A stretch of 64,000 bases of DNA from a virus (IMGVR_UViG_3300037483_000925:1-64000); one strand, 5' to 3'. Positions 15,461-44,376 are shown, numbered from the stretch's first letter. A program made the numbers and translations. The notes: generated by a model not told the origin, from the letters alone.

Positions 15461-16027
15461 TCAGCCCCTCTTGATGTCCATGGTGCTGCTGGACCTCAAC
15501 AAACCCCGAAGCCGGTTCGCCACGGCCTTGAACTCGGTCGTGGGCGAAGCCCCAGAGAAATACTCGAACTCAACCACGTCATACTTCTCCCGCTTCACCT
15601 GGCCCCCACGGTCCAGGTTCGGCTCCATGTCCTTGCCGGTGAGTATCAGCCAGGCACCCTCGCACTGGGCATTGATCACCTCGGCGGGAACCTCGCTAAT
15701 GCCGATCCAGTAGCCGTCCCGGTCCAGGACCCCGACCCAGTAGGTCTCGGGCTGGGTCAGGATGTTGATGTAGTTCCCCTCCCCGGCATCGCTCCCGTAC
15801 CTGGGCCAAGCCATGGGGTTGGACCTGTCGGTCTTGAACCCCCTGTACGGGAGGTCGTCCAGGTAGTCGGCCATCTTGACCAGGGCAGCCTTGATGACCT
15901 CGTCTCCGTAAACAGCGGTGTAGACCCGGCCCCTGTCATCACAATGGGTCTTGAAGTTGGCCAGGCTGACGTAGCTGTTGGCCCCGCTCACCACCGCCCC
16001 GGTCTCCACTGTGATTGTTATGGTCAT
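15461..16027 (-). CDS. head-tail adaptor (DnaT-like family)
   Basis: VETGAVVSGANSYVS, NPMAWPR, VKREKYDVVEFEYF motifs; start at 16027. Confidence 0.8.
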   Translation of the reverse strand: MTITITVETGAVVSGANSYVSLANFKTHCDDRGRVYTAVYGDEVIKAALVKMADYLDDLPYRGFKTDRSNPMAWPRYGSDAGEGNYINILTQPETYWVGVLDRDGYWIGISEVPAEVINAQCEGAWLILTGKDMEPNLDRGGQVKREKYDVVEFEYFSGASPTTEFKAVANRLRGLLRSSSTMDIKRG

Positions 16028-16155
16028 TTCTTCATTTTCCCTGTTCCAGCCATGGCTTCCTTGCTTTCCGGCATCCTGCCCATCTTCTGAATGCACTCGG
16101 TGGCCCCGGCCCCATGGTCAGGGGTTTTCATCGATTCGGCTGGCATCTTAGGCAT
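16024..16155 (-). CDS. small hypothetical protein (43 aa)
   Basis: Read manually, MPKMPAESMK...GKMKK; ATGA overlap with the adaptor gene. Confidence 0.4.
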   Translation of the reverse strand: MPKMPAESMKTPDHGAGATECIQKMGRMPESKEAMAGTGKMKK

Positions 16156-17134
16156 GTCCTTCATGTCTTTCATCATTTTCCATCTCCTTCAATTTTCTCA
16201 AGTCATCCTCGGCCCAACCCTTGACTGGCCAGAACTTCTCCACCAGCCAGGAGATTGGATGGACCCTATGCTCAAAGCCGCCATTCAGGAACTTATCCCA
16301 GGTCCGCCTCTTGGTCTCCAACTGGGCACCCCAGGACTGGGGATAGGGAAAGCTGAAATCCTTCCTGGTACGGAACATGTGGGCGTACCAGGTCCCATGG
16401 TACGCCAGCACCCGGCCGCCGCTGAGCCAGGTGGCACAGGCCACCTCGAGCCCCTGGTTGCCCCAGCTGCCCAGGGACTCGTCGCAGAGGGGCAAGGAGA
16501 AATACTTCTCCCTGGTGGCCATGAAGCAGGAACCCTGAAGGCTCATGGTCTCGGTGAACCCGGTCCTCCTAGCCTCCTTGGTCGAATCCCGGTGCTTGTA
16601 TTGCTCAAAATACTGAAAGTGAGGCTGGACATCAAAGCAATAGGACCAGCTCTGGGGATTCCTCTTGCCAATCCAGACCATCTTCCTTTTGATTCTCTCC
16701 CCGCCGCAGGCCTCACATCTCTCCGGCTTCGGCCCCTGGTAGACCTTCTTCCCGCAGCTATGGCACTTCCAATCGAAGGCCCAGAGATTACGCATGATCG
16801 GGACCATGGTCACATCATCCCCAGCCTGGGAGAATGCCTCCAACATCTTTCTGTCAAATCCCTTGTCGAAGGAGCAATGGGCATCACACTTCATCAAGTA
16901 ACGGCCCCGGGCCAGCTTGGCTGCCAGATTAGTGGCCGCCCTCTGGCCCACGGGCTCGGGGACATAGATCACGTTCACCCGGTCATCCTGCGGTATGCCA
17001 GGGTCGGCCCAGGCTCCGTCCAGGGTAGCGATGACTTCGGTATCCGCCTCGATATTCTCCAGGATGTCCTGAATAGTTCTGGCCAGGAACATCTCCTGCC
17101 GGGCGGGGATGAGTATCGACAAATCAGCCATCAA
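16148..17134 (-). CDS. glycosyltransferase family 2
   Basis: LSILIPARQE...VIATLDG...GQRAATNLAAKLARGRYLMKCDAH (GT-A, DxH). Confidence 0.9.
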   Translation of the reverse strand: MMADLSILIPARQEMFLARTIQDILENIEADTEVIATLDGAWADPGIPQDDRVNVIYVPEPVGQRAATNLAAKLARGRYLMKCDAHCSFDKGFDRKMLEAFSQAGDDVTMVPIMRNLWAFDWKCHSCGKKVYQGPKPERCEACGGERIKRKMVWIGKRNPQSWSYCFDVQPHFQYFEQYKHRDSTKEARRTGFTETMSLQGSCFMATREKYFSLPLCDESLGSWGNQGLEVACATWLSGGRVLAYHGTWYAHMFRTRKDFSFPYPQSWGAQLETKRRTWDKFLNGGFEHRVHPISWLVEKFWPVKGWAEDDLRKLKEMENDERHEGHA

Positions 17135-17795
17135 GATACTTCCTCTTCAAGTCGGCAATATTGCCCCAATGCGGCAATGCCGCCGCCCTGTTCCCGGCTC
17201 CAGACAGCGTCCTGGTCCCGGGCCTCATGCCGTTCCCCGTCTTGAAGCTGACGCAGGGCACTGCACAATCAAAGAGATTGAATGAGATTTTGTAATATTC
17301 CACAATCTTGTCCCTGCCGATGATCGGCCGGACCTCACCGTCGAGCCATTCCGGATACCCGGCCAAGAACTCCTTGAAATATCTGACTATGTATTCCCTC
17401 CTGCACACCTGGGCTCCCTCGGACCAGCGCTTCCTGGAATAGCCGTCCCCGTCCCGAAACACGATCCAGACGTTGCCGCACCTATGGATGTCCCCGCCCT
17501 TGGGTTGGAACCTGAAATACTCCTCCGGATACAGGAAGTCAGCCTCGGCGAATGCCACCCACTCGGTCCCGGCGGCCTCGGCCCCGATCTGGATCTGTCT
17601 CCACTCATTCAGGTATGAGTGGCCCACATCCCCGACGCAGATGTTCCTGCCCAAGTCCGTCGGCCTCTGGGTGACGCTGACCACAGGGAGATCCCCGCAT
17701 GATTCGAGCAGGCGGGCCATGATCCTGGCCTCGAACCCGGGTTCCTCCCTATTGCTGCTGTAATAGAGCACAGTCATATTGTCCCTTAGTCCCAT
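17124..17795 (-). CDS. GT-A-like glycosyltransferase (TVLYY type, paralogue of 18852..19502)
   Basis: TVLYYSSN...PVVSVTQRP...AFAEADFLYP acidic motif. Confidence 0.6.
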   Translation of the reverse strand: MGLRDNMTVLYYSSNREEPGFEARIMARLLESCGDLPVVSVTQRPTDLGRNICVGDVGHSYLNEWRQIQIGAEAAGTEWVAFAEADFLYPEEYFRFQPKGGDIHRCGNVWIVFRDGDGYSRKRWSEGAQVCRREYIVRYFKEFLAGYPEWLDGEVRPIIGRDKIVEYYKISFNLFDCAVPCVSFKTGNGMRPGTRTLSGAGNRAAALPHWGNIADLKRKYLDG

Positions 17796-25758: not shown

Positions 25759-27021
25759 TTAGTATCTCGCACTCACAGCCTGGCCGTCGATGGCGGAGCA
25801 GGACTGGCCGTCGATGATGATGCCGGTTATCCCCATAAAACCACAAATAGAGGCATTTCCAATCCTAACTGTTGGGGTTCCTGCCGGGGTGCATTGCACA
25901 GCCAAAAGCGATCCGGCAGCGACAGATACGTTCTCGACATGATTCCCGGACACATCAGACGCCCCAGAGATAGCCACAGATTCGGCGGTAGACACCCCAT
26001 CGTCATATAATGCAAAGGTGTAGCTCTTCCCCGCCCCTGGTGCACCACTCAGGACAGCATAGATGCTCTTGGCAGTGAAGGCATTTGCGGCCACTTGGTA
26101 AGCATTGGCCACCGTAGCCCATGATACTCCTGGGTCGCCAGTTGTTACCGGGGAATATTTCACATTGGCCGTATCCAGATTGCGGCCACTGGACATCGGA
26201 ATGATGAAATCTCCGTCAACATCAGCGACAAACGTCAAGCCTATCCGGGAAGCGCTAGCTGCCGGGGCATTGGCAAGCGTGCTCATTATGGTTATTTTTT
26301 CCCCAGCAGCGGCGTGATAGCTATTTGTTAAGTCGTTCCCGCTGGTGGCGGTCTCTGAAATGGTTACGGAGACATTTCCAGGGGCACCAACCGATCCGGC
26401 GTTCGACCTTAATGTAAATGTCCTGGTTTTCCCACTCGCCGCAGCACCAGGGGCGATACTAAGATAGACATACAAATTCTTAAATGTCCCGGCACAGGGG
26501 ACGGTGAATTGGCAATCCGTCTCTGTTGTACTTGCATATGCAGCACCGGTCAATGACGCATATTGGGTATCTGTGGTGGACAAGTTGACAAGAGCGTTTC
26601 CAAACAGCATGCTCTCTGCTGCTGTCGTGGAATCAAATTGAAACCCCCAATAGACAACGGCTGCGCCAGGGGTATTCGCAGCATCGACCTTCAAGCCAAT
26701 TGTCTGAGTGGCAGAAACAGCGGCGGTATGAACCAGATCGGAGTTTTCTACCTGGGCGGCTCCTGAAATTGACGTGGTTATTGCAGTCGGGGTTCCGTTC
26801 ACGACTAGCGTGAACGTCCAACTTTTTACGGGGTCACCTGCCCCCGGAGCGGCGGACACGATTACCCAAAGTCTGCTAAGAGTTCCCCCGGTAGAGGCCC
26901 GCTGCTGCCTTAATGATTCAACTCCACTGCTAGCCGCTGAACCTATAGGAAGGAAATAGACAGTCCCTGTAGTCGGCAGGGCATTAGCACCGCTTGACCC
27001 GAAATAGAGAGAGGATGACAT
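25759..27021 (-). CDS. virion structural protein with three tandem beta-sandwich-like repeats
   Basis: Three ~130-aa units each with S-x-APGA(G/A)...K(S/T)(W/R/Y)TF(T/A)L. Confidence 0.65.
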   Translation of the reverse strand: MSSSLYFGSSGANALPTTGTVYFLPIGSAASSGVESLRQQRASTGGTLSRLWVIVSAAPGAGDPVKSWTFTLVVNGTPTAITTSISGAAQVENSDLVHTAAVSATQTIGLKVDAANTPGAAVVYWGFQFDSTTAAESMLFGNALVNLSTTDTQYASLTGAAYASTTETDCQFTVPCAGTFKNLYVYLSIAPGAAASGKTRTFTLRSNAGSVGAPGNVSVTISETATSGNDLTNSYHAAAGEKITIMSTLANAPAASASRIGLTFVADVDGDFIIPMSSGRNLDTANVKYSPVTTGDPGVSWATVANAYQVAANAFTAKSIYAVLSGAPGAGKSYTFALYDDGVSTAESVAISGASDVSGNHVENVSVAAGSLLAVQCTPAGTPTVRIGNASICGFMGITGIIIDGQSCSAIDGQAVSARY

Positions 27022-27033
27022 GATGTGTATCTC

Positions 27034-29169
27034 CTATTGAGCCGTCCATACACCATCGTGCTCGGCAGAACTGGATTCATCATAGTATGCAGTTTGTGTA
27101 CAATCGTACTTTGCCCCATTGCCGTTATCGCACTGGTATTCATCGACATCGCCAAACTGAATGCCGTGGGTGTTAACCCCTGGGGCATCGTTATCTCCCT
27201 CGGGTGCCCTGACAATCCGCTGTCCTGTGAAGGTTAGGTAGCTGGTGGCGGCGTAATGGAACCCCCAATGAGTAGAATGGATCACGTTAGCAGCCTTGCT
27301 AACAATCACGCTTGTGTGGTTCAGGGTTCCGCCAGAGGCAATAGTTACTCTCATATACTGCCCCGAATCTATGGTCATGTTAGCCAAGGTTAAAGTAGAT
27401 GCTAATGTAGTAGCCTGGGTCCGCCACTCAAAATGATAGCCCCCTGCCTTATCACATTGGCTATCCGTGCCGTCGATAGAAATAATGGGGAGTCCCATAA
27501 CCGGGGAGGCAGCAAGACCCAAGAAATACTTGAGCCGGTTAGTTACAGTCCCTCCAGTTATAGACAAAGTATTGTTATTGGTGTTAAGTTCTTGGAAATC
27601 CGAATAAATAGCACAGGTATAATCCGTACTGGCCGCAAGGCTGTCAACTGTGGTAAATGTACAAGTTGCAAAAGTTAGCGTCTTATTACTTATGGCATCG
27701 CCAGAAGGGTGATTCCATCTAACGTTTACACAGCCACGGGGGGTCGTTCCATCAGCATTAGGAGTCACTTTTACAGTGACATTAGTGAAAGTCACATCGG
27801 ACGGCATCACCACCAAATTGCCAGCATCCTTGCTCAACAAAGTAGAATCATCAACGGTGACAACTGCATTTTTGACAACAAAGTCCCATCCGCCATAACC
27901 AGTGCGTTCAACTTGAGTTAGGCCGTCAATATTAATTACACTTCCATCTGCGTCATCTTCATCAGTAACGCCCCAAGCTAAGTCGAATTGCGCCTCAACT
28001 GTGGTGCTTGCGATTGTCCAGTCGCAACGGCGGGAGTTATTATATCCTTCCTGTCCAGTGGAAAATTCAGCTTGTAAAGATGCGACATCAACAATTTGGG
28101 TTCTATCTCTAGGGGATTCGATTACACTACTGCTCACATCAACCACCGAGTATCCACCGCCACTGGTCAGACCGCCACGATAACAATTCTGAGTCAGGAT
28201 ATTATTCGCCCGAACATCTACGTTTTGGAGAATAGTAGCCCCATCAGAAAGGGTATCTTTCAAGGTTACATTGTCAAGGATGAATAACAATCTCCCGGCA
28301 TTTTCCTTAGTTGCTCCCCGGTTAGCCATTAAACAAAATGTGTAACATTGTTCCCTGGCTACATTACCCCAATTTACTTGATTAGGGCCATTGCCATCAA
28401 TGGTGATGTTTTCCAAAACAAAACCAGGAGAAGCATCGGTTAAATGGGTCCAATAATAGGTAGAAGTAACCTGGGCAGTATTAGCAGTAAAGAAGTGAAA
28501 TGCGTCGTCGTATTGAAGGATTTTAATACTGGCTGTCTTCGTATACCCATCACTTGCATCGCCGCAGATGGTTACTTGCTGATTGCATGGCATCTTGACG
28601 GTGGCGTATCCGTTAGGCAGGATAGCCACAGTCCTTCCAGCCGGAACCTTAACTACGCCGTTGTTAAAATTATCCTTAACATAATCGAGAATAGCCTGAA
28701 AATTTACCCTATCATTGGTTACTCCATCAACAGCGCACGCAGAGAGGCCATAACCTGGGTTGGTCACGTCTATCAGGGCTTCCCGAGCATCGTCGACGAT
28801 GTTAACTTTTAGGGTGGATTTGACAAAACCAATTCCATCCTCGTTAGACAGAGTAATAGTTACCAGTTTGTCCTGGCCCACATATGTCCGATTAACCACT
28901 GTCAATGTAACCGGCGTTGCTGGAGTCTTAGCTCCATCAAGGATCACGCAAGAGGTAGCAGAAAGTGTGTAATCCTGCCCCACCCCCTTGGTGGAGGTAT
29001 GCGGAGCCGGAGAAGCGGACAGCGTAACAGTCGTCCCCCCTGCCGGAGCGTTCTCGGTCAGAGAGATGGGGAGTTGGAACACCTGGGCCTCGGTCTTATT
29101 CGCCGAGACAGACCAGATGCCAGCGCCAGCCAGGGGGTTGCTACCGCCTCTATACGCCAAAATAGTCAT
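27034..29169 (-). CDS. beta-helix (pectate lyase-like) depolymerase/adhesin with Calx-beta-like N-terminus
   Basis: DGVTNDRVNFQAILD...VKVPAG motif, repeated ENITIDG/DNVTL beta-helix rungs; Calx-like N-terminal domain. Confidence 0.7.
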   Translation of the reverse strand: MTILAYRGGSNPLAGAGIWSVSANKTEAQVFQLPISLTENAPAGGTTVTLSASPAPHTSTKGVGQDYTLSATSCVILDGAKTPATPVTLTVVNRTYVGQDKLVTITLSNEDGIGFVKSTLKVNIVDDAREALIDVTNPGYGLSACAVDGVTNDRVNFQAILDYVKDNFNNGVVKVPAGRTVAILPNGYATVKMPCNQQVTICGDASDGYTKTASIKILQYDDAFHFFTANTAQVTSTYYWTHLTDASPGFVLENITIDGNGPNQVNWGNVAREQCYTFCLMANRGATKENAGRLLFILDNVTLKDTLSDGATILQNVDVRANNILTQNCYRGGLTSGGGYSVVDVSSSVIESPRDRTQIVDVASLQAEFSTGQEGYNNSRRCDWTIASTTVEAQFDLAWGVTDEDDADGSVINIDGLTQVERTGYGGWDFVVKNAVVTVDDSTLLSKDAGNLVVMPSDVTFTNVTVKVTPNADGTTPRGCVNVRWNHPSGDAISNKTLTFATCTFTTVDSLAASTDYTCAIYSDFQELNTNNNTLSITGGTVTNRLKYFLGLAASPVMGLPIISIDGTDSQCDKAGGYHFEWRTQATTLASTLTLANMTIDSGQYMRVTIASGGTLNHTSVIVSKAANVIHSTHWGFHYAATSYLTFTGQRIVRAPEGDNDAPGVNTHGIQFGDVDEYQCDNGNGAKYDCTQTAYYDESSSAEHDGVWTAQ

Positions 29170-29170
29170 T

Positions 29171-30220
29171 TTAGGCCACTATCCCAATGGACCTTTCGGG
29201 CCGGAAAAAGATGGTGTCTGCGGTGATAACATCCGCCACATTTTGAATAACCTGAGTAGATACTGCCGGAACCGTCTGCTGCATAGCACCAGCGGTAGTT
29301 ACACTCAGCCAGAGTTGGGTTAACAGACCGGACCCGGCTACGCCCCAATTCCACCCAGCTACGTTCGTAACATGGCCGGAGTAGATGAAATCTCCAGAGG
29401 CATCAGCCAGAATCCCGCCAGCGTTTACGCACATAACGATGGCTGGGCAGGTAGTCGTGGCTCCAGCATCCCCGATAGCCTTCTTAAATTTTCTCACCCC
29501 ACCGCTGAACCAAGCGTAACAAATTTCGCCAAAAGCCAGGTTCTCCCCAGCCACTCCAGTAAAGGGAGGGTCGCTAGTAGTCTGGTCAGCAGGAGCAATG
29601 TCAATGGCGATGTCTAACTTTGCGTCAAGCTGGGTCTGGATGGCAGAAGTAACGCCATTGCTATAGCCTATCTCTGTGGCATCAGGCGCACTTGCCCCAC
29701 CCAACCGTCCCTCAAGGCTGGGATTAATCAACACCCAGGCGGTGCCGTTGTATTCCAGGTAGCAGAGATAATTAGCAGCGGGAATATCCCCGGCCACTAG
29801 AGCGGTGCTGGCATACTTGACAATGGCCTTGGTAGTCAGACCGTTAGGGGTGAAGGTCACAGCCCCGGTATTGGCCCCTGCCGCCACCAGAGTTACCCGG
29901 GTGCCGTTGGTAAGGGTGACTGCCGGGGAATAAGTCGCGGTGATCGCATCGACCGTGCCGCCCGCCGCCGCGGTAGGAAGGCCGGGGGCGTAGTCGGTCC
30001 AGGGAGTTGCCGCAGTACCATTTCCTGCCCCATCACCCTTAAGTATGGCCGAGGTAGAAGAAATAGTGGCCCCGCCAAGGACTGTTAGAAGATTGGTCAA
30101 GGTAACTATCTTGGGTTCGTAATCTGACTCCGAGTCCCATACAAGAAACAGATCATTGCCAATGGGTGTCACCTTGGCCGTATATTTGGAATAACTCTTC
30201 GGCAGTGGCTTGGGATACAT
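29171..30220 (-). CDS. fibre protein, probable head fibre
   Basis: TEIGYSNGVTSAIQTQLDAK trimeric fibre motif; C-terminal GENLAFGEICY...KAIGDA domain resembling capsid-cement folds. Confidence 0.6.
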   Translation of the reverse strand: MYPKPLPKSYSKYTAKVTPIGNDLFLVWDSESDYEPKIVTLTNLLTVLGGATISSTSAILKGDGAGNGTAATPWTDYAPGLPTAAAGGTVDAITATYSPAVTLTNGTRVTLVAAGANTGAVTFTPNGLTTKAIVKYASTALVAGDIPAANYLCYLEYNGTAWVLINPSLEGRLGGASAPDATEIGYSNGVTSAIQTQLDAKLDIAIDIAPADQTTSDPPFTGVAGENLAFGEICYAWFSGGVRKFKKAIGDAGATTTCPAIVMCVNAGGILADASGDFIYSGHVTNVAGWNWGVAGSGLLTQLWLSVTTAGAMQQTVPAVSTQVIQNVADVITADTIFFRPERSIGIVA

Positions 30221-32597: not shown

Positions 32598-33557
32598 TTA
32601 ACTGGTGGTCAGGCCGGTGATGGTCCCGTGGTACTCCTCGGGGCCGTGGTCAAGGCCGATCTGGCCGTAGATCATCTCGGTGTCGGCGGCGCCGGTCTTG
32701 GACAGGACGTCCCGGAACAGGACCCCCTTGTTGGGCACCGGGCAGAACACCGGCTTGCAGACGCTCAGCTCGGCCACTAGCATCGTGTCGGTGGGCATGA
32801 ACGGAGCCCAGACGATGCCCAGCATACCGAAGTCCATCTCGATCTGCTTGATGTTCACCCCGCCCACGTTCCGATCGTCCGGGGCGTAGCCGTAGATGTT
32901 GGTCAGTTTCTGCTTCTGGAAGGCGTTGACGAAAATGACCGCGTTCTGGAACAGGGAACCGTTGCCCGCCATGGTCCGGAATAGCTGGTCGCACAGGTCC
33001 TTGGTCAGGGGGGCGGTGCCTGCGGCCACGGTGTTCGTGGTGCAGGCGGAGACCATGCCCCGGCTCTTGGCCGCTACTGCGGCGGAGGTGGCCTGCTGGT
33101 AGGTGCCCTGGAGGAAGGTATACTCGATATCTACGGCCACCTGCTGGAGCGTGGCCGCGGCCTGCCAGTCCATCTCGTTTCCCACGGGCTGGGGTCCCAG
33201 CATCACGTTCCCGGCCCCGGACACGTACACGGTCCCGGTCACGGACTGTTTGGCGTAGGACGCGCTGATGGTCTTCTCGAAGATTTGGACGGTGTTGACG
33301 TCCTGGCCCCTCACGTAGGACTTGAGGTAGGTGGAGGCCGTCAGAGACGCGGTCTCGGTGATGGCCGGCTGGGCCGCCGTCTCCAAGGACCAGGGCTGGG
33401 CCACGGGGAACTCGAATGCCTGGACGGTGGCGATGGCCCCACCCTGGAGCCCGCCGATCATGTTTAGGAACGGGGTCTTGATGGCCCCGATCAAATACAA
33501 TTCCCCGACAAAGTTGGGGACATTCCATACGGTCGCGGCAGCGCTTACATTTGCCAT
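32598..33557 (-). CDS. major capsid protein (HK97 fold, SU10/DUF5309-like)
   Basis: TPFLNMIGG, NTVQIFEKTIS, DIEYTFLQG, EMIYGQIGLDHG; follows scaffold. Confidence 0.88.
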   Translation of the reverse strand: MANVSAAATVWNVPNFVGELYLIGAIKTPFLNMIGGLQGGAIATVQAFEFPVAQPWSLETAAQPAITETASLTASTYLKSYVRGQDVNTVQIFEKTISASYAKQSVTGTVYVSGAGNVMLGPQPVGNEMDWQAAATLQQVAVDIEYTFLQGTYQQATSAAVAAKSRGMVSACTTNTVAAGTAPLTKDLCDQLFRTMAGNGSLFQNAVIFVNAFQKQKLTNIYGYAPDDRNVGGVNIKQIEMDFGMLGIVWAPFMPTDTMLVAELSVCKPVFCPVPNKGVLFRDVLSKTGAADTEMIYGQIGLDHGPEEYHGTITGLTTS

Positions 33558-33600: not shown

Positions 33601-34470
33601 TCAACCGGTGAAGGTCGGGTCCTCCTTGAAGATCGCGTTCTTGAGGGCGACCATGGCCACCGTATTACCCCTGGTCTTGGCCTCGGTATACTGGTCCTTC
33701 ATGGTCTGGAGGGCGTTCCTCGGCCCCGAGGCGGCTCCGCCTCCGGCACCGCTGCCCGAGGCCTGGGAGCCTTTAAGCATCAGCTTGCTATTCGGGTGCG
33801 AGCGGATCAGCACCTCGATGGCCTCCTCTGGGGAGGCAAGCACCCTGGGATTGGAGGGGGAGTAGATCTCCTCGCCGTTGACCTTGGCCACCACCACGGG
33901 GTCGCCGCCGTTCTCGGCAGGCACGACCTCGAAGGCGTTCCCGAACATGGTATAGAGCACCTCCGGGAAATAGTTCTCGGCCACGGACTCCTTGATGAAC
34001 TGGGAGGCTTCGAAGGCGCCCCGGACCATCAGGTTGCGGATGACCCGGTCCTGGTTCCCGGTCCGGGCCTCGAAGTCCACCAGCTTAGTCTTGTAGTCGG
34101 CGTCCAGGTTCCCGTACTTGGTCTCCCAGGCCTTGTTGACCTCGTCAATGGCCTTCTGCTTGAGCTGCTCCACCTTGCCCGCCTCCACGAATTGCTTGTC
34201 CTCGTAGTTGGCGACGGTGGCCAGCGCCTCCTTGGCCTTCTCGGCATCCAGCCCCTCGAACGGGGTGGCGGCCTCCTCCAATTCCTTGATCCGGATGCGG
34301 TACTTCCCGGCCTCGTTGTTGGCCTCGGTGATCTGCGCACGCAGCCTCACCACGTCCTGGCCGGTCTCCATCCCCTTGTCGTCGACCCATACGGGGTTCC
34401 CCGCCTGGTCCAGGACCGCCAAGCTGACCTTGGCCCCCTCGATCTCGATCTCCTGTAGTTTCCAAGGCAT
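33601..34470 (-). CDS. capsid scaffolding protein
   Basis: GNPVWVDDKG N-terminus, coiled coil, ASPEEAIEVLI...GSGAGGG C-terminus. Confidence 0.8.
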   Translation of the reverse strand: MPWKLQEIEIEGAKVSLAVLDQAGNPVWVDDKGMETGQDVVRLRAQITEANNEAGKYRIRIKELEEAATPFEGLDAEKAKEALATVANYEDKQFVEAGKVEQLKQKAIDEVNKAWETKYGNLDADYKTKLVDFEARTGNQDRVIRNLMVRGAFEASQFIKESVAENYFPEVLYTMFGNAFEVVPAENGGDPVVVAKVNGEEIYSPSNPRVLASPEEAIEVLIRSHPNSKLMLKGSQASGSGAGGGAASGPRNALQTMKDQYTEAKTRGNTVAMVALKNAIFKEDPTFTG

Positions 34471-34621: not shown

Positions 34622-34780
34622 TCAGACAACCTGTCTTTGGATGGTCACTTGTGCATCCCTGATCCCTCCCTGATGAAGTTTAACGGAAACAGCAATTTCC
34701 CCATTGGTTTTGGCCTCACGGCCAGCCTCCAGGGCCTTCTGAAACTGCTCAATGATTTTTGCCTGTTTCTCATTCGGCAT
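34622..34780 (-). CDS. small hypothetical protein (52 aa)
   Basis: Read manually, MPNEKQAKIIEQF...GEIAVSVKLHQGGIRDAQVTIQRQVV. Confidence 0.6.
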   Translation of the reverse strand: MPNEKQAKIIEQFQKALEAGREAKTNGEIAVSVKLHQGGIRDAQVTIQRQVV

Positions 34781-34828: not shown

Positions 34829-35014
34829 TTAATGGTAAAAAAATAATTTATTTTTTTCAGTCCAGACATATTTTCCCGTTTGGCCCTCGAGTGCTTTATC
34901 ATGCAAAAATTGACCAGAGGTAAAAGGGACAGGAATCCCCTCGGGGAAGGCCCTACACTTTGGAATCAAGTCCTCTCCGAATTGAAAATATTTACAATTT
35001 ATGCATCCTTTCAT
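34829..35014 (-). CDS. small Cys-rich protein, candidate immunity protein of the MuF toxin
   Basis: CINC...CRAFPEGIP...H; ATGA-coupled to the toxin domain; same AT-rich composition. Confidence 0.6.
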   Translation of the reverse strand: MKGCINCKYFQFGEDLIPKCRAFPEGIPVPFTSGQFLHDKALEGQTGKYVWTEKNKLFFYH

Positions 35015-36810
35015 TTCTTTATCACCACTACTTTCTTAGGATTAAAAACAATGATTTGGTTACCACCAACAACTGCCGTTAAGGAACGCTCTTTAATTAT
35101 TATAGAATCATATCCCATTTCCTTAATCGCTTGAGTCATTGCAGCGATCCTTGTATCCCAAGTAAATCCATTTTCTTCTTTAAATTTTCTTTGATTAATC
35201 ATCCAATTTTCACTTCCTTGAGGAAACTTTTCATTTACTTGTTCAAGTAAATTTAAATTTTTATCTATCATTTTTCTTTCTATTGGGTCGGCGACATCTC
35301 TAATTTTTAATCTAAATTCTCTTGCGATTTCATCTTGTCCGCCAGTAAGTATTAAAGGATTATCTAATTTAAGTTTTAATGTCATTGTTGTTTGTTTAAA
35401 ATCTTCTAAGTTACGATAAAGAGCTACTGTCTCTTTATCAATAGCAACATAAACTCCATCTCCCCAGACCCTGCCAAATGCTTTTATCGAAAGATCAAAA
35501 CCTTCCTTTTCAATAGCCTTAGCAGAATCTAAACTGGTCACATGATATACATCTTTAGTATATTGACTGCCTTCAATAAATTTCTCTGCTTCTATTCTAG
35601 TCATAGCTGATTTCCATTCTATCTTTCCAGCTCCAAGCCCGGGCAATTCCCCCATCCCCAGCCCCCCGACCCCCTCCGGGCCGCCGTACCCCCGGAGCCC
35701 GGTCCAGGCCCCGGGCTTGCCCTCCAGGAGCCGGAGCCTGCCCGTGGCCGGGTCCACCAGACCGGAGAAGGAGACCTTGCCCTCGTCGATGAGGCCAAGG
35801 CGCCCCGGACCCACTATGGCCAGTCGGTCCTCATGGAGCAGCTTGGGGAACAGGTCCGAGAACGAGCCCTGGTGGAATCCTTGCATCTCGGGCGGTCTAT
35901 AGGCCCGGCCGATGTCGATGACATCCTCGGATTTGGTCCAGGGTCTGTACGCCTTGTCCATCTCGTCGATGTCCAGGCCTAGCTCCCGCCAGGTTGCCGT
36001 CACGGGCAACAAAACACATCGTCAGCGATGATGCAAGGGACAAGCCGGAGGTTTTTCTGGATAAATATACTCATTCCCGTCCAAGGCGGCGCATTGTAGA
36101 CAGGTGCCCCGACCCCTTTTGCCCCCAACTTCCAGCGTGGCGCACCATCTTTCACCCTTGACGATATCCCGATTAGCGGCATAAACAGATTGCATGGCCC
36201 CGACATTGGCGCTCTGCACGTAGGTCCTGGCCAGGGTCACGGCCTCGGTCCGGGTCATGTCCCAGCCCTGCATGATCCTATCCACCAGGTCCGGGTAGCC
36301 CTCGCCCTTGAGCATCCCGGCCATGATCTCGTTCTTGATGCCCGAGACCATGTTCCGGTCGAAGGTCCGGCCCACCCAGTCCTGGAGCAGCCTGCCCCCG
36401 ACCGGGGTCTCGATGGCGAGGGACCGGACCTGGGCGGCGGTCAGGGCCAGGGCCTGAAAGGGGACCCTGCCATCCCAGGACAGGATATCCCCGTGCATAG
36501 CCAGGGAGGCGGAGCCGGCGTGCCCCGCCATGTCCGCAATATGGCCGGTGAGATAGTTCTCGATGCCCTGGGTCATAGAGCCGAGCTCGTCCAGCAGGGC
36601 CATGGACCTCTCCTCGTCCCAGGTAGATGGAACAAAAAGAGCACCCTTGGCCCTGGCCTCCAGCTCGGCCATGATCTCGTTCTGGGCCTGGCCCACGGCC
36701 TTGAGCAGGGGTTTGAGCGAGGCCTCAGTGAAGCCGTCGAGCTGGTCCTGCCAGGCCGCCATCCTGGCAAGGCGGATCAATTCCTCAGTTTTTTTGGTAG
36801 AGATGGGCAC
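35011..36810 (-). CDS. MuF head-morphogenesis protein with ADP-ribosyltransferase-like C-terminal domain, 599 aa if in-frame UGA at 36022-36024 is decoded
   Basis: ORFs 36022..36810 and 35011..36012 are in one frame: TCLQCAALDG...PLHHR*RCVLLP; ART motifs YHVT...GF...GDGVY...GYDSII. Confidence 0.85.
35993..36010 (-). promoter_or_regulatory. putative bacterial SECIS-like hairpin
   Basis: GUUGCC-CGUGAC-GGCAAC starts 11 nt after the UGA; G-U at loop positions 2-3. Confidence 0.5.
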
Positions 36811-37106
36811 TAATTATTTCCCATGCAACTCAAGGCCCATTCTTTTGCCTTGATAAAGGAAATGACCCCTTTTAACTCCTTATAACCGGATGGCCCCTCT
36901 AAGGTCCACCTTCTCAATCTTGCAGCTGGCCACCAAGTCAGCTTATGTCCCAGAATCTCCCAAGAGACGGAAATCAACAGGACTGGCTCATTGCAATCGC
37001 AATTAAAGACACCGATCTCAAAACTCATATTGCCCCTGGACAAATGGTATTGCGTTATAAGTCCCTTGGGGAAATCATTCATGGTAATTTCGGGAACTTC
37101 GGCCAT
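36810..37106 (-). CDS. hypothetical protein
   Basis: 98-aa AT-rich ORF with RBS, stop overlaps the MuF start. Confidence 0.55.
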   Translation of the reverse strand: MAEVPEITMNDFPKGLITQYHLSRGNMSFEIGVFNCDCNEPVLLISVSWEILGHKLTWWPAARLRRWTLEGPSGYKELKGVISFIKAKEWALSCMGNN

Positions 37107-39178: not shown

Positions 39179-40732
39179 TCATTGGACGGTAGCTCCCGGA
39201 ACAGGGGCGGCCGTGCCAGGGGCGGCGGGCGGTCTCAGGAACGAGCCGGCCAGGCCCCCGACCGCGGACGACTGCAACGCCTGGTTCTGGAGGGCGGCCT
39301 CCACCTCGACCGGGTCGATGTCCTCGTTGAGCCAGCCCTTGTCCTGGAGCACGGTGATGGCTGTCTTGGTATCCAGCAGGATCTTCTGGGGGCAGCCTGC
39401 GGCCTTGAGCACCTGGTCGATGTCCTGGAGGGACAGGGTGATGCCCCTCAAATCCACCTTCACGGACCCGCCGGCGTCCTTGCCCTTGCCCAGCCACCTG
39501 GCGGTGTAGGCCAGTGCTGTCTCCAGGCAGTCCCGGAGGCGAAGGGCGGCCACCTGGAGCTGGCTGGTGGTCTTGGCCTCGTTGATGGCCTCGCCCGTGG
39601 CCGTGGGTGCCTGCCCGGTCCGGGGCATGAGCATCCTGAGCCCATACTTGGCCATGTCCTCCTTCAGGTCCTGGAGGTCAGTCCTGGCGGAAGTTATGGC
39701 TGCCCCGGAATGCTCGGCGTAATAGAATTTGGCATTCTCACTGGTCGACTTGCAGACAGTCAAGGGACCGAGCGTGATCTCAGTCTCGTCGGTGATTATG
39801 CCCGTGGCACAGAAGATGGGGAAGCAGGCCACAGTCATGACGTTGTCATAGTCCGACTGCTTCTGGAAATGCCGGATGCTCTGGTAGGCCAGGTCCAGGA
39901 GCGGGGGTATGGCAGTCATGAAGCCGTTGTCCTCGTCGGCGTAGAATGTCACCAGGGGAATGTAATTCAGGGGCTTGCCATCGTACCCGACTATGGGGCC
40001 GCCGCCGTTGCCCGAGGGGTCGCCCTCCTTGATTTCCTTCCACTGGCCGTCCTCGTCCTTGCGGAAGATGCGGAACCTGCCCGGCTCCAGGACTCGGATC
40101 TGTTCCTCGGCGGTGGTCCCGAATTCCCCGTCCTCCTCCTCGACCGCCTCCCTGATCCGGACCTGGGAGAGGACCGGCCTGCCGCCCTCCATCTTGTACC
40201 TCCAGGCGAAGACCTGGGAGGCCCGGTACATCACCCAGTAGGGGCGATGCCCAGCGGCCTTTTTCTCGGCCTCAGTCCCGATCCCGGGCGGGATGGGGGT
40301 GGAGTCCACCAGGAGATGGACCAGGCCGGACCTGAGCCCCTGCTTGAACAGGTTCTGGGCGAATACCTGGAAGTGGTTGCCCTCCCGGTCGATGTCCTCC
40401 ATCAGTCCGGGCTCTGCGTCTGTGCCCAGGATTTCCACGGGCACGTCCTCGTCCAGGGCCGGGGGTTTGGAGAAGACCTTGCCGGTGAGCATGCCCACGG
40501 TATCCTCAAAGGCGTCGTAGAGGGTGGCCTGCATCCAGCGCCGCTTGTAGTTCTCTGGCTTCTCGTCGGCGAACTTGGGCAGGTAGGCGTCGTGCTCCTC
40601 CCGGAGCCGGGCGGTACCCTGACGGAGGTCGTCCACCAGCTTGAGCCAGGGCTCCATTATCAGATATTGGTCGTGCTTCTGATCGACGCCCTTGGCGGGA
40701 TTGGCGAGCAGCTCGACGGTATTGGCCATCAC
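39179..40732 (-). CDS. portal protein (DUF4055-like)
   Basis: YLPKFADE...YKRR...LYDAF, PPLLDLAY; follows terminase. Confidence 0.9.
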   Translation of the reverse strand: MMANTVELLANPAKGVDQKHDQYLIMEPWLKLVDDLRQGTARLREEHDAYLPKFADEKPENYKRRWMQATLYDAFEDTVGMLTGKVFSKPPALDEDVPVEILGTDAEPGLMEDIDREGNHFQVFAQNLFKQGLRSGLVHLLVDSTPIPPGIGTEAEKKAAGHRPYWVMYRASQVFAWRYKMEGGRPVLSQVRIREAVEEEDGEFGTTAEEQIRVLEPGRFRIFRKDEDGQWKEIKEGDPSGNGGGPIVGYDGKPLNYIPLVTFYADEDNGFMTAIPPLLDLAYQSIRHFQKQSDYDNVMTVACFPIFCATGIITDETEITLGPLTVCKSTSENAKFYYAEHSGAAITSARTDLQDLKEDMAKYGLRMLMPRTGQAPTATGEAINEAKTTSQLQVAALRLRDCLETALAYTARWLGKGKDAGGSVKVDLRGITLSLQDIDQVLKAAGCPQKILLDTKTAITVLQDKGWLNEDIDPVEVEAALQNQALQSSAVGGLAGSFLRPPAAPGTAAPVPGATVQ

Positions 40733-40995
40733 TTGACCCCCTTCTTGGATTTGGTCGGTTTCCTAACTACCGGCTTAGCCTGGGACATGTCGGGAGCCTT
40801 GGCCGCCACCTTGGCCATGGCCTTGGCCTCCTTAGCCTGCTTATCCGCCATGACCTGGGCTTCCTTTGCGGCCGCGGCCAGCCTCTTGGGATCCTTCATG
40901 ATTACCTGGGACTCTGCCAAAGTCCGGGCATCGGACTCCGCTTGCCACTTCCTGTCCTGAGCCGTCATCTTGGGCTGCGATGCTGTAATTGCCAT
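40729..40995 (-). CDS. small basic Lys/Ala-rich protein
   Basis: WQAESDARTLAESQVIMKDPKR; RBS. Confidence 0.65.
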   Translation of the reverse strand: MAITASQPKMTAQDRKWQAESDARTLAESQVIMKDPKRLAAAAKEAQVMADKQAKEAKAMAKVAAKAPDMSQAKPVVRKPTKSKKGVK

Positions 40996-42343: not shown

Positions 42344-43810
42344 TCAATAGCTCGCCTGCTGGACCGTGGTCACCTGAACTGGGGTCATGATCTCGTATCT
42401 GGAATCGTCGTAAACATGGTCCTCGGCATTGGTATCGACGTCATCCAGCTTCTTGGGGTCCCTGGGTAGGACCGGCACTGTCCTGATGAAATGGCGGCAG
42501 GTGTCGAACGTGAAGAGCCCCGGCTCCTCCATGGGAACCTTGGTGGCCGCCCTGAGCATCATCCTGAACCTCTCCAAACCCGTCTGCCTGGACCCGGGGC
42601 GCTTGTCGGCGGCGACCCAGCGGACCCCCACCCGGGCCATGTCCGCGGCTATGGTGCTGTCAGAATCGAAGATGGAGGCGTCGGCCGGGCCTGGCCTGAT
42701 CTGGGTCCTGTAGGGCAAAAACTTCTCGATCTCCATAATCCCCCGGGCAATCTCCGGGGCCAGCATCTTGCAGCCCACGTCCGGGTCCTTGCCATTCCAC
42801 CCGTACCATTCCGCCAGCCTGATCCGGGAGCCGGAGTAGAAGGTCCTGACCTTGTCCCCCGCCTGGACCTGGGAGCCGTCGGCGATCCCCCACCAGCCCA
42901 CGGAGAAGGGCTTGCTGCTGCCCCAGTCGAAGGACCTGGACACCCTCCAGGTATGCGGGATCTTGAATGGAGGCAGGATGTGCACGGCCGGGTCCCAGAC
43001 GTCGTCTATGGCCCCGCCGGCCACGATGTCCCAGATGCCCCACCTGAGGGCCTTGACCATGGACGCCGACCCTGCCCCGGACAGCCTGTCCTCGTAGGTG
43101 GGGTCGTTCCGGAGCTGGGTAGGGTTGTCCTCCAGCAAGGACAGGATATACTGCCGCCTCATGCCCCCGTCCTCGGGCGGCATCTGGGTTATCCTACCCA
43201 TGGGGGCAATGTCCACGAAATCGGCCTTGACCCAGTTGTGGCCGATGCCCCCGGGGTTGGCGCTGGTCAGGATGCGGGGGAACAGGCCCCTGAATTGCCC
43301 GGAGAGCTCGAGGCCGCCGAGCCTGACCTGGGCACGCAGGAACTTGTAGACGTCCTTGCTCCACTGCTCCAGCTGGTCGATCATGAGGACGTGGATCTCG
43401 GCCCCCTGGTAGTTGTTCATGTCCGTATCGTGCTGGCAGTGGCAGAGGTGGATCTTGCTCCCGTTCCAGAACTGGAACGAGTTCTTGCCCGTGAACTTGA
43501 CATCGCCCCACACCATCAAGGGGCGAAGCAGGGAGAACAGTGAGCTGGGGCCGTCCATGTGGTTCCGCCAAAGATCGGGGAAGATGCGACGGAAGAGGTA
43601 GACCTGAAGGCCGGGGATTGCGTAGCACCAGCTTATGGCGGCGGCCCTCATCAGGTGGCTCTTGCCCCCGCCCTTGGCCCCGCCGAACATGATCTCGGTG
43701 GCCTCGGACTGGAAGGCAAAGGCCTGCTTGGGATGGAGGCCGAGGTTGACATCGCCCTCGACGGGGGTGAAGGATTCCGCCGAATGGTATTGGAGGTCGG
43801 CGTTAATCAA
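42344..43810 (-). CDS. terL: terminase large subunit
   Basis: Walker A GGAKGGGKS, LMIDQLE Walker B, SANPGG, RSFDWG, EDHVYDDSRY nuclease motif. Confidence 0.95.
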   Translation of the reverse strand: MINADLQYHSAESFTPVEGDVNLGLHPKQAFAFQSEATEIMFGGAKGGGKSHLMRAAAISWCYAIPGLQVYLFRRIFPDLWRNHMDGPSSLFSLLRPLMVWGDVKFTGKNSFQFWNGSKIHLCHCQHDTDMNNYQGAEIHVLMIDQLEQWSKDVYKFLRAQVRLGGLELSGQFRGLFPRILTSANPGGIGHNWVKADFVDIAPMGRITQMPPEDGGMRRQYILSLLEDNPTQLRNDPTYEDRLSGAGSASMVKALRWGIWDIVAGGAIDDVWDPAVHILPPFKIPHTWRVSRSFDWGSSKPFSVGWWGIADGSQVQAGDKVRTFYSGSRIRLAEWYGWNGKDPDVGCKMLAPEIARGIMEIEKFLPYRTQIRPGPADASIFDSDSTIAADMARVGVRWVAADKRPGSRQTGLERFRMMLRAATKVPMEEPGLFTFDTCRHFIRTVPVLPRDPKKLDDVDTNAEDHVYDDSRYEIMTPVQVTTVQQASY

Positions 43811-44376
43811 TCCCCCTCCCCATACCCATTGGCCTCCACAGGCAGTTGCCCCTGGGCCAGGACCTTAACATCCCCCTGCTCCAGGTACAGGTTGATCTGG
43901 GGCCTCTGGTCACCGCCCCTCTGCCTGTTGTCCTGCTCGTACAGGCCCAGGTGCTTGGACAGCCTCTCCAGGGCGGCGCCCTTGGGCCAGAGGGTGAACT
44001 TGGTACGGCGCCTGACCACCTGGAGGTCACTGTCCTCGCTCAGACTCTTGATCACATCCTCTTCTATCTGGAAGGATTGTATGGCGTAGGCTATCTCGTC
44101 AGGGATGTCGGCAGGGCACCCGGGTATGAGCCTGATATCGCTGAAGGCCAGGTGCATCTCCTCCTGGAGGATGTTCTCCACCAAGGTCTTTGCCCTAAGC
44201 TCAAGTAGCTGCCTGCATTCCTTGGAGACAGCATCTCCCACCTTTGCCTTCCTACCTTTAGTGCCTGGTGGCCTGCCCCCGTTCGGGTTCCTTGTGCCCG
44301 GAGGTCTCCCCCTTGGACGTTTGCCGTTTCCATTGCCTGGGGTGGGGTAGGCTACTCTCTTGATGCCATCGTCCAA
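43807..44376 (-). CDS. terS: terminase small subunit
   Basis: LAFSDIR...KFTLWPKGAALERLSKHLGLY; ATGA-coupled to terL. Confidence 0.85.
   Translation of the reverse strand: MDDGIKRVAYPTPGNGNGKRPRGRPPGTRNPNGGRPPGTKGRKAKVGDAVSKECRQLLELRAKTLVENILQEEMHLAFSDIRLIPGCPADIPDEIAYAIQSFQIEEDVIKSLSEDSDLQVVRRRTKFTLWPKGAALERLSKHLGLYEQDNRQRGGDQRPQINLYLEQGDVKVLAQGQLPVEANGYGEGD

Follow-up and report, generated by a model that had tools for sequence, protein, structure and literature searches.

An in-frame UGA at an invariant cysteine of phage MuF proteins is a probable selenocysteine codon

The MuF head morphogenesis gene of an uncultivated phage is interrupted by a single in-frame UGA, located exactly where its homologues encode an invariant cysteine. 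We consider it very likely that this UGA is a selenocysteine (Sec) codon, decoded by SelB- and SECIS-dependent insertion with the machinery of the host. Sec insertion, suggested by the original prediction, is well supported by the recurrence of TGA at one Cys column in twelve MuF lineages, by hairpins of bacterial SECIS (bSECIS) type specific to the TGA genes and by conserved sequence downstream of the codon. It is also likely that MuF constitutes a bacteriophage selenoprotein family, in which Sec occupies an invariant, probably metal-binding site and has arisen from Cys many times independently, favoured by a G-U already present at the place of the future loop (P-V-T or T-V-S codons).

The MuF gene and its genomic context

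The window analysed here, 64,000 nucleotides long, covers the first 64 kb of an IMG/VR virus record of 84,046 nt. The head module is encoded on its minus strand:

42344-43864, minus strand: large terminase (TerL) gene, ends in TGA
39179-40762, minus strand: portal protein gene, an upstream member of the head module (PHROG 145, E = 2.9e-106), ends in TGA
36025-36810, minus strand: MuF/gp7 head morphogenesis gene, part preceding the UGA, 262 codons from the GTG at 36810
36024-36022, minus strand: in-frame UGA, residue 263, first Cys of H-x-x-C-R-C, proposed Sec codon
35650-36021, minus strand: conserved C-terminal half of the MuF core, RCVLLPVTATWRELG ... LVDPATGRLRLLEGK, followed by a Gly-rich linker; aligns with 32 homologues
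33601-34470, minus strand: head scaffolding protein gene (PHROG 784 and 206), ends in TGA
32598-33557, minus strand: major head protein gene (PHROG 1328, E = 7.8e-48)

The order TerL, portal, MuF, scaffold, major head is the one expected for MuF within a head module. From MuF onward the related contig L139 is arranged alike (small ORFs, DUF6651, SU10_MCP). The GTG start is backed by the alignment to the homologue P0036, the N-terminus of which is MPKST.

The part preceding the UGA codes for the helical N-terminal half, the CxxC motif (C237, C240) and H260. The frame runs through TCLQCAALDG to CPLHHR, meets the TGA and continues with RCVLLPVTATWRELG, RCVLLP standing right after the stop. It then remains open to the TAA at 35013-35011, giving 262 + 1 + 336 = 599 residues with one internal stop. 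The original reading of this locus as a UGA at the first Cys of H-x-x-C-R-C with both flanks open in one 599-aa frame is thereby confirmed, as is the length of the termination product (262 aa).

Truncated at the UGA, the protein scores 28.0 bits against the Pfam Phage_Mu_F profile (PF04233). Reading through raises the score to 35.9 bits, above the gathering cut-off of 29.6, and the match then spans profile positions 3-111 of 112. Phage Mu F (gp30) and gp7 of Bacillus phage SPP1 share with this protein the Pfam domain, the location between portal and scaffold/major head genes and the CxxC ... HxxCRC motif; in this phage, however, UGA replaces the first Cys of HxxCRC, and identity to the MuF proteins of cultured phages does not exceed 26%. 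The database entry for the MuF of this phage (P0001) contains the truncated product only, of 246 aa.

Two other loci of the window deserve mention. At 25759-29178 (minus strand) two long open stretches (715 and 425 codons) share one frame and are split only by a TAG at 27034-27036; these may be adjacent genes. A gene for a DnaT_2-like ssDNA-binding protein (PF20557, E = 2e-34; 15464-16117, minus strand) adjoins a family 2 glycosyltransferase gene (GT2, 16151-17146), and the long plus-strand frames over both of them are shadows.

UGA occupies an invariant cysteine position

Thirty-two homologues, 360-390 aa long, have the first Cys of their H-x-x-C-R-C motif at the stop column, and homology extends for about 125 residues beyond it. 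In an alignment of 75 sequences the positions of C237, C240, H260 and C263 are invariant, while C265 is nearly so. All 80 related viral loci have Cys at the stop column, some with an intein inserted just before it. The alignment of UGA with Cys in homologues is one of the features by which selenoprotein genes are recognised.

At least seven viral loci have an in-frame insertion of about 320-350 aa, bearing the hallmarks of an intein, directly before this Cys (HPN/C...SN/CRC). Inteins tend to target critical sites. In the IMG/VR MuF genes (L072, L079/L080, L084/L087, L102, L104, L108) the intein-like insertions start with C and end with SN or GN before CRC; many of the representatives of about 690 aa among the best 150 matches of the protein search described below may carry such inteins as well.

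The two cysteines of the CRC motif are not equivalent. In the HPNCRG clade (L082, L085, L086, L092, L097) the second one is replaced by Gly and the first is retained, so the second CRC Cys is dispensable, unlike the first. A MuF gene of another kind is found at L141:678-1439: it ends on TAA nine residues past CxxC, has an unrelated gene behind it and contains no H-x-x-C half.

Together, the four invariant residues resemble a C2HC metal site. AlphaFold2 (AF2) models of MuF proteins are confident (pLDDT 85 and 90, the former for the MuF of this phage). When these folds were compared with the PDB (Foldseek and VIA-align), the N-terminal half matched generic helical bundles only, and no match of the Cys-bearing half exceeded Z 2.4; a PDB sequence search with MuF gave no match. 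Since no solved structure resembles the Cys-bearing half, it is the conservation of the tetrad that points to a role in metal binding.

TGA recurs at the same column in twelve lineages

TGA was found at this column in twelve MuF lineages: this phage, L001, L002/L003, L023, L127, L128/129, L130/131, L132, L133/134, L135, L136 and L137/138. In all of them it is followed by R-C and conserved MuF sequence. TAA or TAG occupies the column in none of the twelve, nor does TGA replace any of the other three conserved Cys codons in these lineages.

These lineages were collected in several ways. A database homologue of 264 aa ends exactly at the stop column, and on its contig the TGA is followed by CGT TGC and further MuF sequence. 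A DNA pattern for P-x-H-x-x-TGA-R-C...W, which matches no more than roughly a third of the TGA lineages, added L002/L003 (from IMG/VR) and L023 (from a metagenome). The 262-aa N-terminal part then served as the query of an exhaustive phmmer search through 1.84 billion representatives, and the best 150 proteins were taken. Among these, eight further proteins end at H-x-x; on their contigs, which come from eight different samples, the column is occupied by TGA, and R-C and a further 100-440 open codons with homology to MuF follow. Altogether, ten of the best 150 representatives are truncated. Nine of the ten stop at this column, all on TGA, while the tenth stops elsewhere on TAA, with an unrelated gene and no MuF continuation behind it. 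A first search of viral contigs with a single MuF protein as the query gave no relatives, and a protein database search with the piece following the UGA found no split C-terminal fragments.

In a tree of 153 N-terminal halves the twelve TGA rows stand apart from each other. Their distribution requires 11 changes between Cys and TGA, at least eight of which are forced by well-supported branches. The nearest relatives of this phage (67-72% identity) have Cys at the column. The alignment of one of them, P0036, with the full MuF shows 71% identity over 416 residues and passes through and beyond the UGA. The coding sequence after the UGA is thus conserved, as it is in selenoprotein genes.

In two contigs with TGA-containing MuF genes, L127:161-2475 and L132:1-2208, MuF is immediately preceded by WbqC, PIG-L deacetylase, hexapeptide-transferase and ATP-grasp genes, a set that recalls the glycosyltransferase-rich region of the window around the GT2 gene.

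A SECIS-like hairpin accompanies the UGA

Immediately downstream of the UGA lies the following element:

36010-35993, minus strand: SECIS-like hairpin GUUGCC-CGUGAC-GGCAAC, starting 11 nt after the UGA

It consists of GUUGCC (36010-36005), the loop CGUGAC (36004-35999) and GGCAAC (35998-35993), exactly as predicted originally. The stem is of 6 bp and the loop of 6 nt; 17 nt separate the UGA from the loop, which has G-U at its positions 2-3. The single-branch minimum free energy (MFE) of the hairpin with its flanks is -10.9 kcal/mol. Taken alone, the hairpin is unremarkable (RNAfold gives z = -1.0 for a stretch of 71 nt, whose MFE structure does not include it), so its significance comes from the comparison with other TGA genes and with Cys genes.

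For this comparison we looked, within 60 nt from the codon, for perfect stems (4 bp or more) with an apical loop starting 18-30 nt from the first base of the codon. The loop-position window was first chosen after four examples had been seen, then widened to 18-30 nt and applied to the eight lineages found later. A perfect stem of -5 kcal/mol or below was present in ten of the twelve TGA genes and in one of 59 distinct Cys genes (Mann-Whitney p = 2.9e-6). In these ten genes the loop lies 16-23 nt after the UGA. When G was additionally required in the first two loop positions, the counts became 9/12 and 0/59. Overall hairpin stability, with no constraint on position, separated TGA from Cys genes poorly.

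Nine different stems occur across the lineages: GUUGCC, GAGACUA, ACUCCUU, UGUGAGAC, CUGUAAC, CCGGCU, UGGCUUC, GGGACGUG and GGUGCC. The loop G-U is located at nucleotides 22-23 in five lineages, 24-25 in one and 28-29 in four. In E. coli fdhF, G23 and U24 are the essential loop bases. When the 19 codons following the UGA were recoded synonymously, the observed stability was reached in 0-9% of trials per lineage, except for L023 (21%).

Close Cys relatives with readable DNA were available in two cases, L139 and L071. L139 has TGT at the column and 71% protein identity to this phage; its sequence GTT GCA CTT CCC GTT ACC AAG ACC does not fold, while GTT TTG TTG CCC GTG ACG GCA ACC, which stands opposite to it in this phage, does. 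In the second close pair of Sec and Cys forms, L001 (TGA) and L071 (Cys), a hairpin is likewise present in L001 only. It is these two pairs that tie the hairpin to the TGA most clearly.

By published bSECIS criteria the apical loop has 3-9 nt with a G within its first two positions, the stem has 4-16 bp, the distance from the UGA is 16-37 nt and the MFE is -7.5 kcal/mol or below (PMC13188914). Eight of the twelve lineages, this phage among them, comply with all of these. Of the other four, L135 falls short of the MFE limit by 0.1 kcal/mol and L132 has the loop G only at position 3; the hairpin of L023 is weak, and the 46 nt available up to the contig end of L136 contain none. Rfam had no relevant family at the hairpin region, and no Rfam model is expected for hairpins of this kind.

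The loop G-U is always contributed by a Val codon (of P-V-T or T-V-S). Since these Val codons are common in Cys genes too, the G-U is not independent of the coding sequence. A loop that is partly in place beforehand may explain why the site is converted so readily.

Genetic code and selenocysteine machinery

All three stop codons are in use in this phage. Since the portal, terminase and scaffold genes end in TGA, its genetic code is the standard one. In L132 and L137 the MuF reading frame that contains the TGA itself ends on a second TGA. When the whole record was scanned for further TGA codons flanked by long open frames, only antisense shadows of real genes came up, and no tRNA genes were found in the 84-kb record. 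Stop-reassigned phages have TGA as a sense codon in many genes, together with a suppressor tRNA; neither was seen here.

No genes for tRNA-Sec, SelA, SelB or SelD were found in the three phage records searched (G000, G001, G002). Sec decoding must therefore be supplied by the host. The search for this host or its prophages used two approaches: a TGA-specific DNA pattern gave 19 matches in 185,579 species genomes, all of them off-frame and due to chance, and a MuF profile applied to about 400 genomes from each of two phyla found only distant MuF genes with no stops and no close prophage.

The C-terminal module

Beyond the conserved core, the long form of MuF in this phage ends in a module which is followed by a small overlapping gene:

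35011-35649, minus strand: AT-rich C-terminal module of about 210 aa, ending at the TAA 35013-35011; probably an ART-PolyVal-like ADP-ribosyltransferase domain in the polymorphic-toxin position
34829-35014, minus strand: Cys-rich ORF of 61 aa overlapping the MuF gene end; putative partner or immunity protein

The GC content falls from about 0.59 in the 1-kb window 36001-37000 to 0.455 in 35001-36000, and the AT-rich part starts near 35650. The profile of ART-PolyVal (PF18760) matches the module with E = 2.7e-4 and 22.2 bits, under its cut-off of 31.2; an Atlas feature score of 0.93 to ART-PolyVal clusters is a lead only. Relatives with cores of 67-72% identity carry ADPrib_exo_Tox (P0036), ATLF (P0038) or other C-termini. 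This combination of a conserved MuF core with a variable C-terminal domain is the polymorphic-toxin architecture already described for MuF proteins (PMC5576092, PMC3482391, PMC5512222).

The 61-aa ORF has no Pfam or PHROG family, and is homologous (E = 9e-7; 41% identity over 41 aa) to an ORF behind the MuF-ADPrib_exo_Tox gene of P0036 in L139. It is possible that it codes for a partner or immunity protein. A 52-aa ORF located behind the MuF gene (34622-34780, minus strand) is 79% identical to L139:4975-5133.

The original prediction also considered a readthrough switch gating the toxin-bearing long form. An extra C-terminal domain is present on the long forms of this phage, L128 and L135. The TGA-containing genes with complete 3' ends in L130, L132, L137 and L002, however, stop about 105-125 codons past the UGA with no extra domain, and a stop at the UGA would cost the protein not only any toxin but also the conserved C-terminal half of its MuF core. 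The UGA is thus a property of the MuF core, and toxin gating is not supported as the reason for its presence. The ART-like domain of this phage does depend on recoding, as a consequence rather than by demonstrable design.

Decoding of the UGA

We suggest the following course of events. The late head operon would be translated in a Sec-competent host, where SelB with Sec-tRNA(Sec) would bind the hairpin at 36010-35993 and deliver Sec at the UGA in competition with release factor 2. Translation would then proceed to the 599-aa MuF, with Sec as the fourth member of a C-x-x-C ... H-x-x-(C/U) tetrad and the ART-like domain behind it. Termination at the UGA would give the 262-aa fragment, a probable by-product in which half of the MuF core is missing. 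In this scheme the phage would provide the codon and the hairpin only, with tRNA-Sec, SelA, SelB and SelD coming from the host. As Sec decoding competes with termination, a low yield of full-length MuF is to be expected. MuF/gp7 is a minor component of the virion, so such a yield may be tolerable. Sec may offer some benefit over Cys at this site. Several points count against Sec: a convincing hairpin is missing in two of the twelve lineages (L023 and L136), part of the loop G-U stems from Val codons common in Cys genes too, so many independent switches from Cys are unusual for selenoprotein families, and there are few precedents for Sec in an apparent metal-binding tetrad rather than in a redox site.

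Could the same pattern result from programmed readthrough with no involvement of selenium? The hairpin would then slow termination, and a near-cognate or suppressor tRNA (for Trp or Cys) would read the UGA, setting a fixed ratio of short to long MuF. UGA followed by C is a weak stop context, and C follows the UGA in nine of the twelve genes; the presence of hairpins and the additional domains on the long forms of this phage, L128 and L135 would also agree with such a mechanism. It gives no reason, however, why UGA should always appear at one invariant Cys when there are about 260 upstream codons and four conserved Cys codons to choose from. Trp at this position would probably inactivate the protein, the short product would be devoid of the conserved half of the core, and four of the TGA genes have no extension to regulate. 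Moreover, the loop position and its G-U match the SelB-type model. We therefore regard plain readthrough as unlikely.

For some anaerobes it has been proposed that a tRNA-Sec-like tRNA carrying Cys acts with a SelB-like factor to insert Cys at UGA in a SECIS-dependent manner. Such insertion would leave the same signature (UGA at a Cys column plus a hairpin) and is inseparable from Sec insertion by sequence. Still, no such tRNA was found in the three phage records searched, and the mechanism is rare while ordinary Sec decoding is widespread, which makes it a very improbable explanation.

A gene broken by a recent TGC/TGT-to-TGA mutation or by a sequencing or assembly error, next to a chance hairpin, is less credible still. 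A single base change would suffice, and other frameshifts were noted in the window originally, but the recurrence of TGA, and always TGA, at this column in twelve independent lineages from different samples and assemblers effectively excludes this possibility, which is also at odds with the conservation of the downstream frame at the protein level and with the restriction of hairpins to TGA genes. Although stop codon recoding is known in phages, reassignment of TGA to a sense codon in the phage or its host (code 4 or code 25) can practically be dismissed, as the portal, terminase and scaffold genes end in TGA, no suppressor tRNA is present, the single TGA within the MuF gene is accompanied elsewhere only by off-strand shadows, and L132/L137 end the same ORF on TGA.

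Relation to known selenoproteins and implications

Sec-type MuF genes resemble bacterial selenoprotein genes with a SECIS inside the ORF (E. coli fdhF; model according to PMC13188914) in having UGA at a Cys position and an in-gene stem-loop immediately downstream. Further common features are a small apical loop 16-23 nt from the UGA with G and then U at its start, and the intermixing of Sec and Cys forms within a family. The differences are that the gene belongs to a phage, codes for a virion-associated morphogenesis protein rather than a cellular oxidoreductase and would rely on Sec machinery borrowed from the host, and that the Sec forms of MuF, each of which has a hairpin sequence of its own, are dispersed as tips among the Cys forms.

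A review of viral recoding published in 2021 lists the poxvirus glutathione peroxidases (molluscum contagiosum, fowlpox) as the only viral selenoproteins (PMC8310308). They are similar in that a UGA of a virus gene is read as Sec by host machinery, and the fowlpox SECIS is also located in the coding region (PMC8310308). The poxvirus enzymes, however, are products of captured cellular genes in eukaryotic viruses and depend on eukaryotic SECIS elements, whereas MuF is a native phage structural family with hairpins of bacterial type. The words phage and virus are absent from the 2026 review of prokaryotic selenoproteomes (PMC13188914), and full-text literature searches for phage selenoproteins gave nothing relevant. 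The MuF of this phage is most likely a selenium-containing virion protein, and none of the literature searched describes one in phages.

The other relevant group are the MuF polymorphic toxins of temperate phages, in which a conserved N-terminal MuF part is joined to a variable C-terminal effector (Jamet et al., 2017, PMC5576092; Zhang et al., 2012, PMC3482391). In this phage, too, the core is joined to an ART-PolyVal-like module, foreign in base composition, with a small ORF behind it. Here, in contrast to these toxins, the effector would be reached only via UGA recoding; the small ORF is only a candidate immunity gene, and the phage only possibly a temperate one. The description of this toxin group in PMC5576092 makes no mention of cysteine, zinc, a stop codon or TGA.

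Several practical consequences follow. Gene callers cut MuF genes of this kind in two. The presence of a Sec-type MuF predicts a Sec-competent host. The small natural cassettes of UGA plus hairpin, with their matched Cys controls, should be useful for studies of SECIS evolution.

If our interpretation is true, phages can use the SelB system of their hosts for a structural gene, Sec can stand for Cys in a C2HC tetrad which does not look like a redox site, and bacterial SECIS elements can evolve repeatedly from ordinary coding sequence. The production of intact MuF and, in this phage, the delivery of the ART-like effector would then depend on the selenium status and the Sec machinery of the host.
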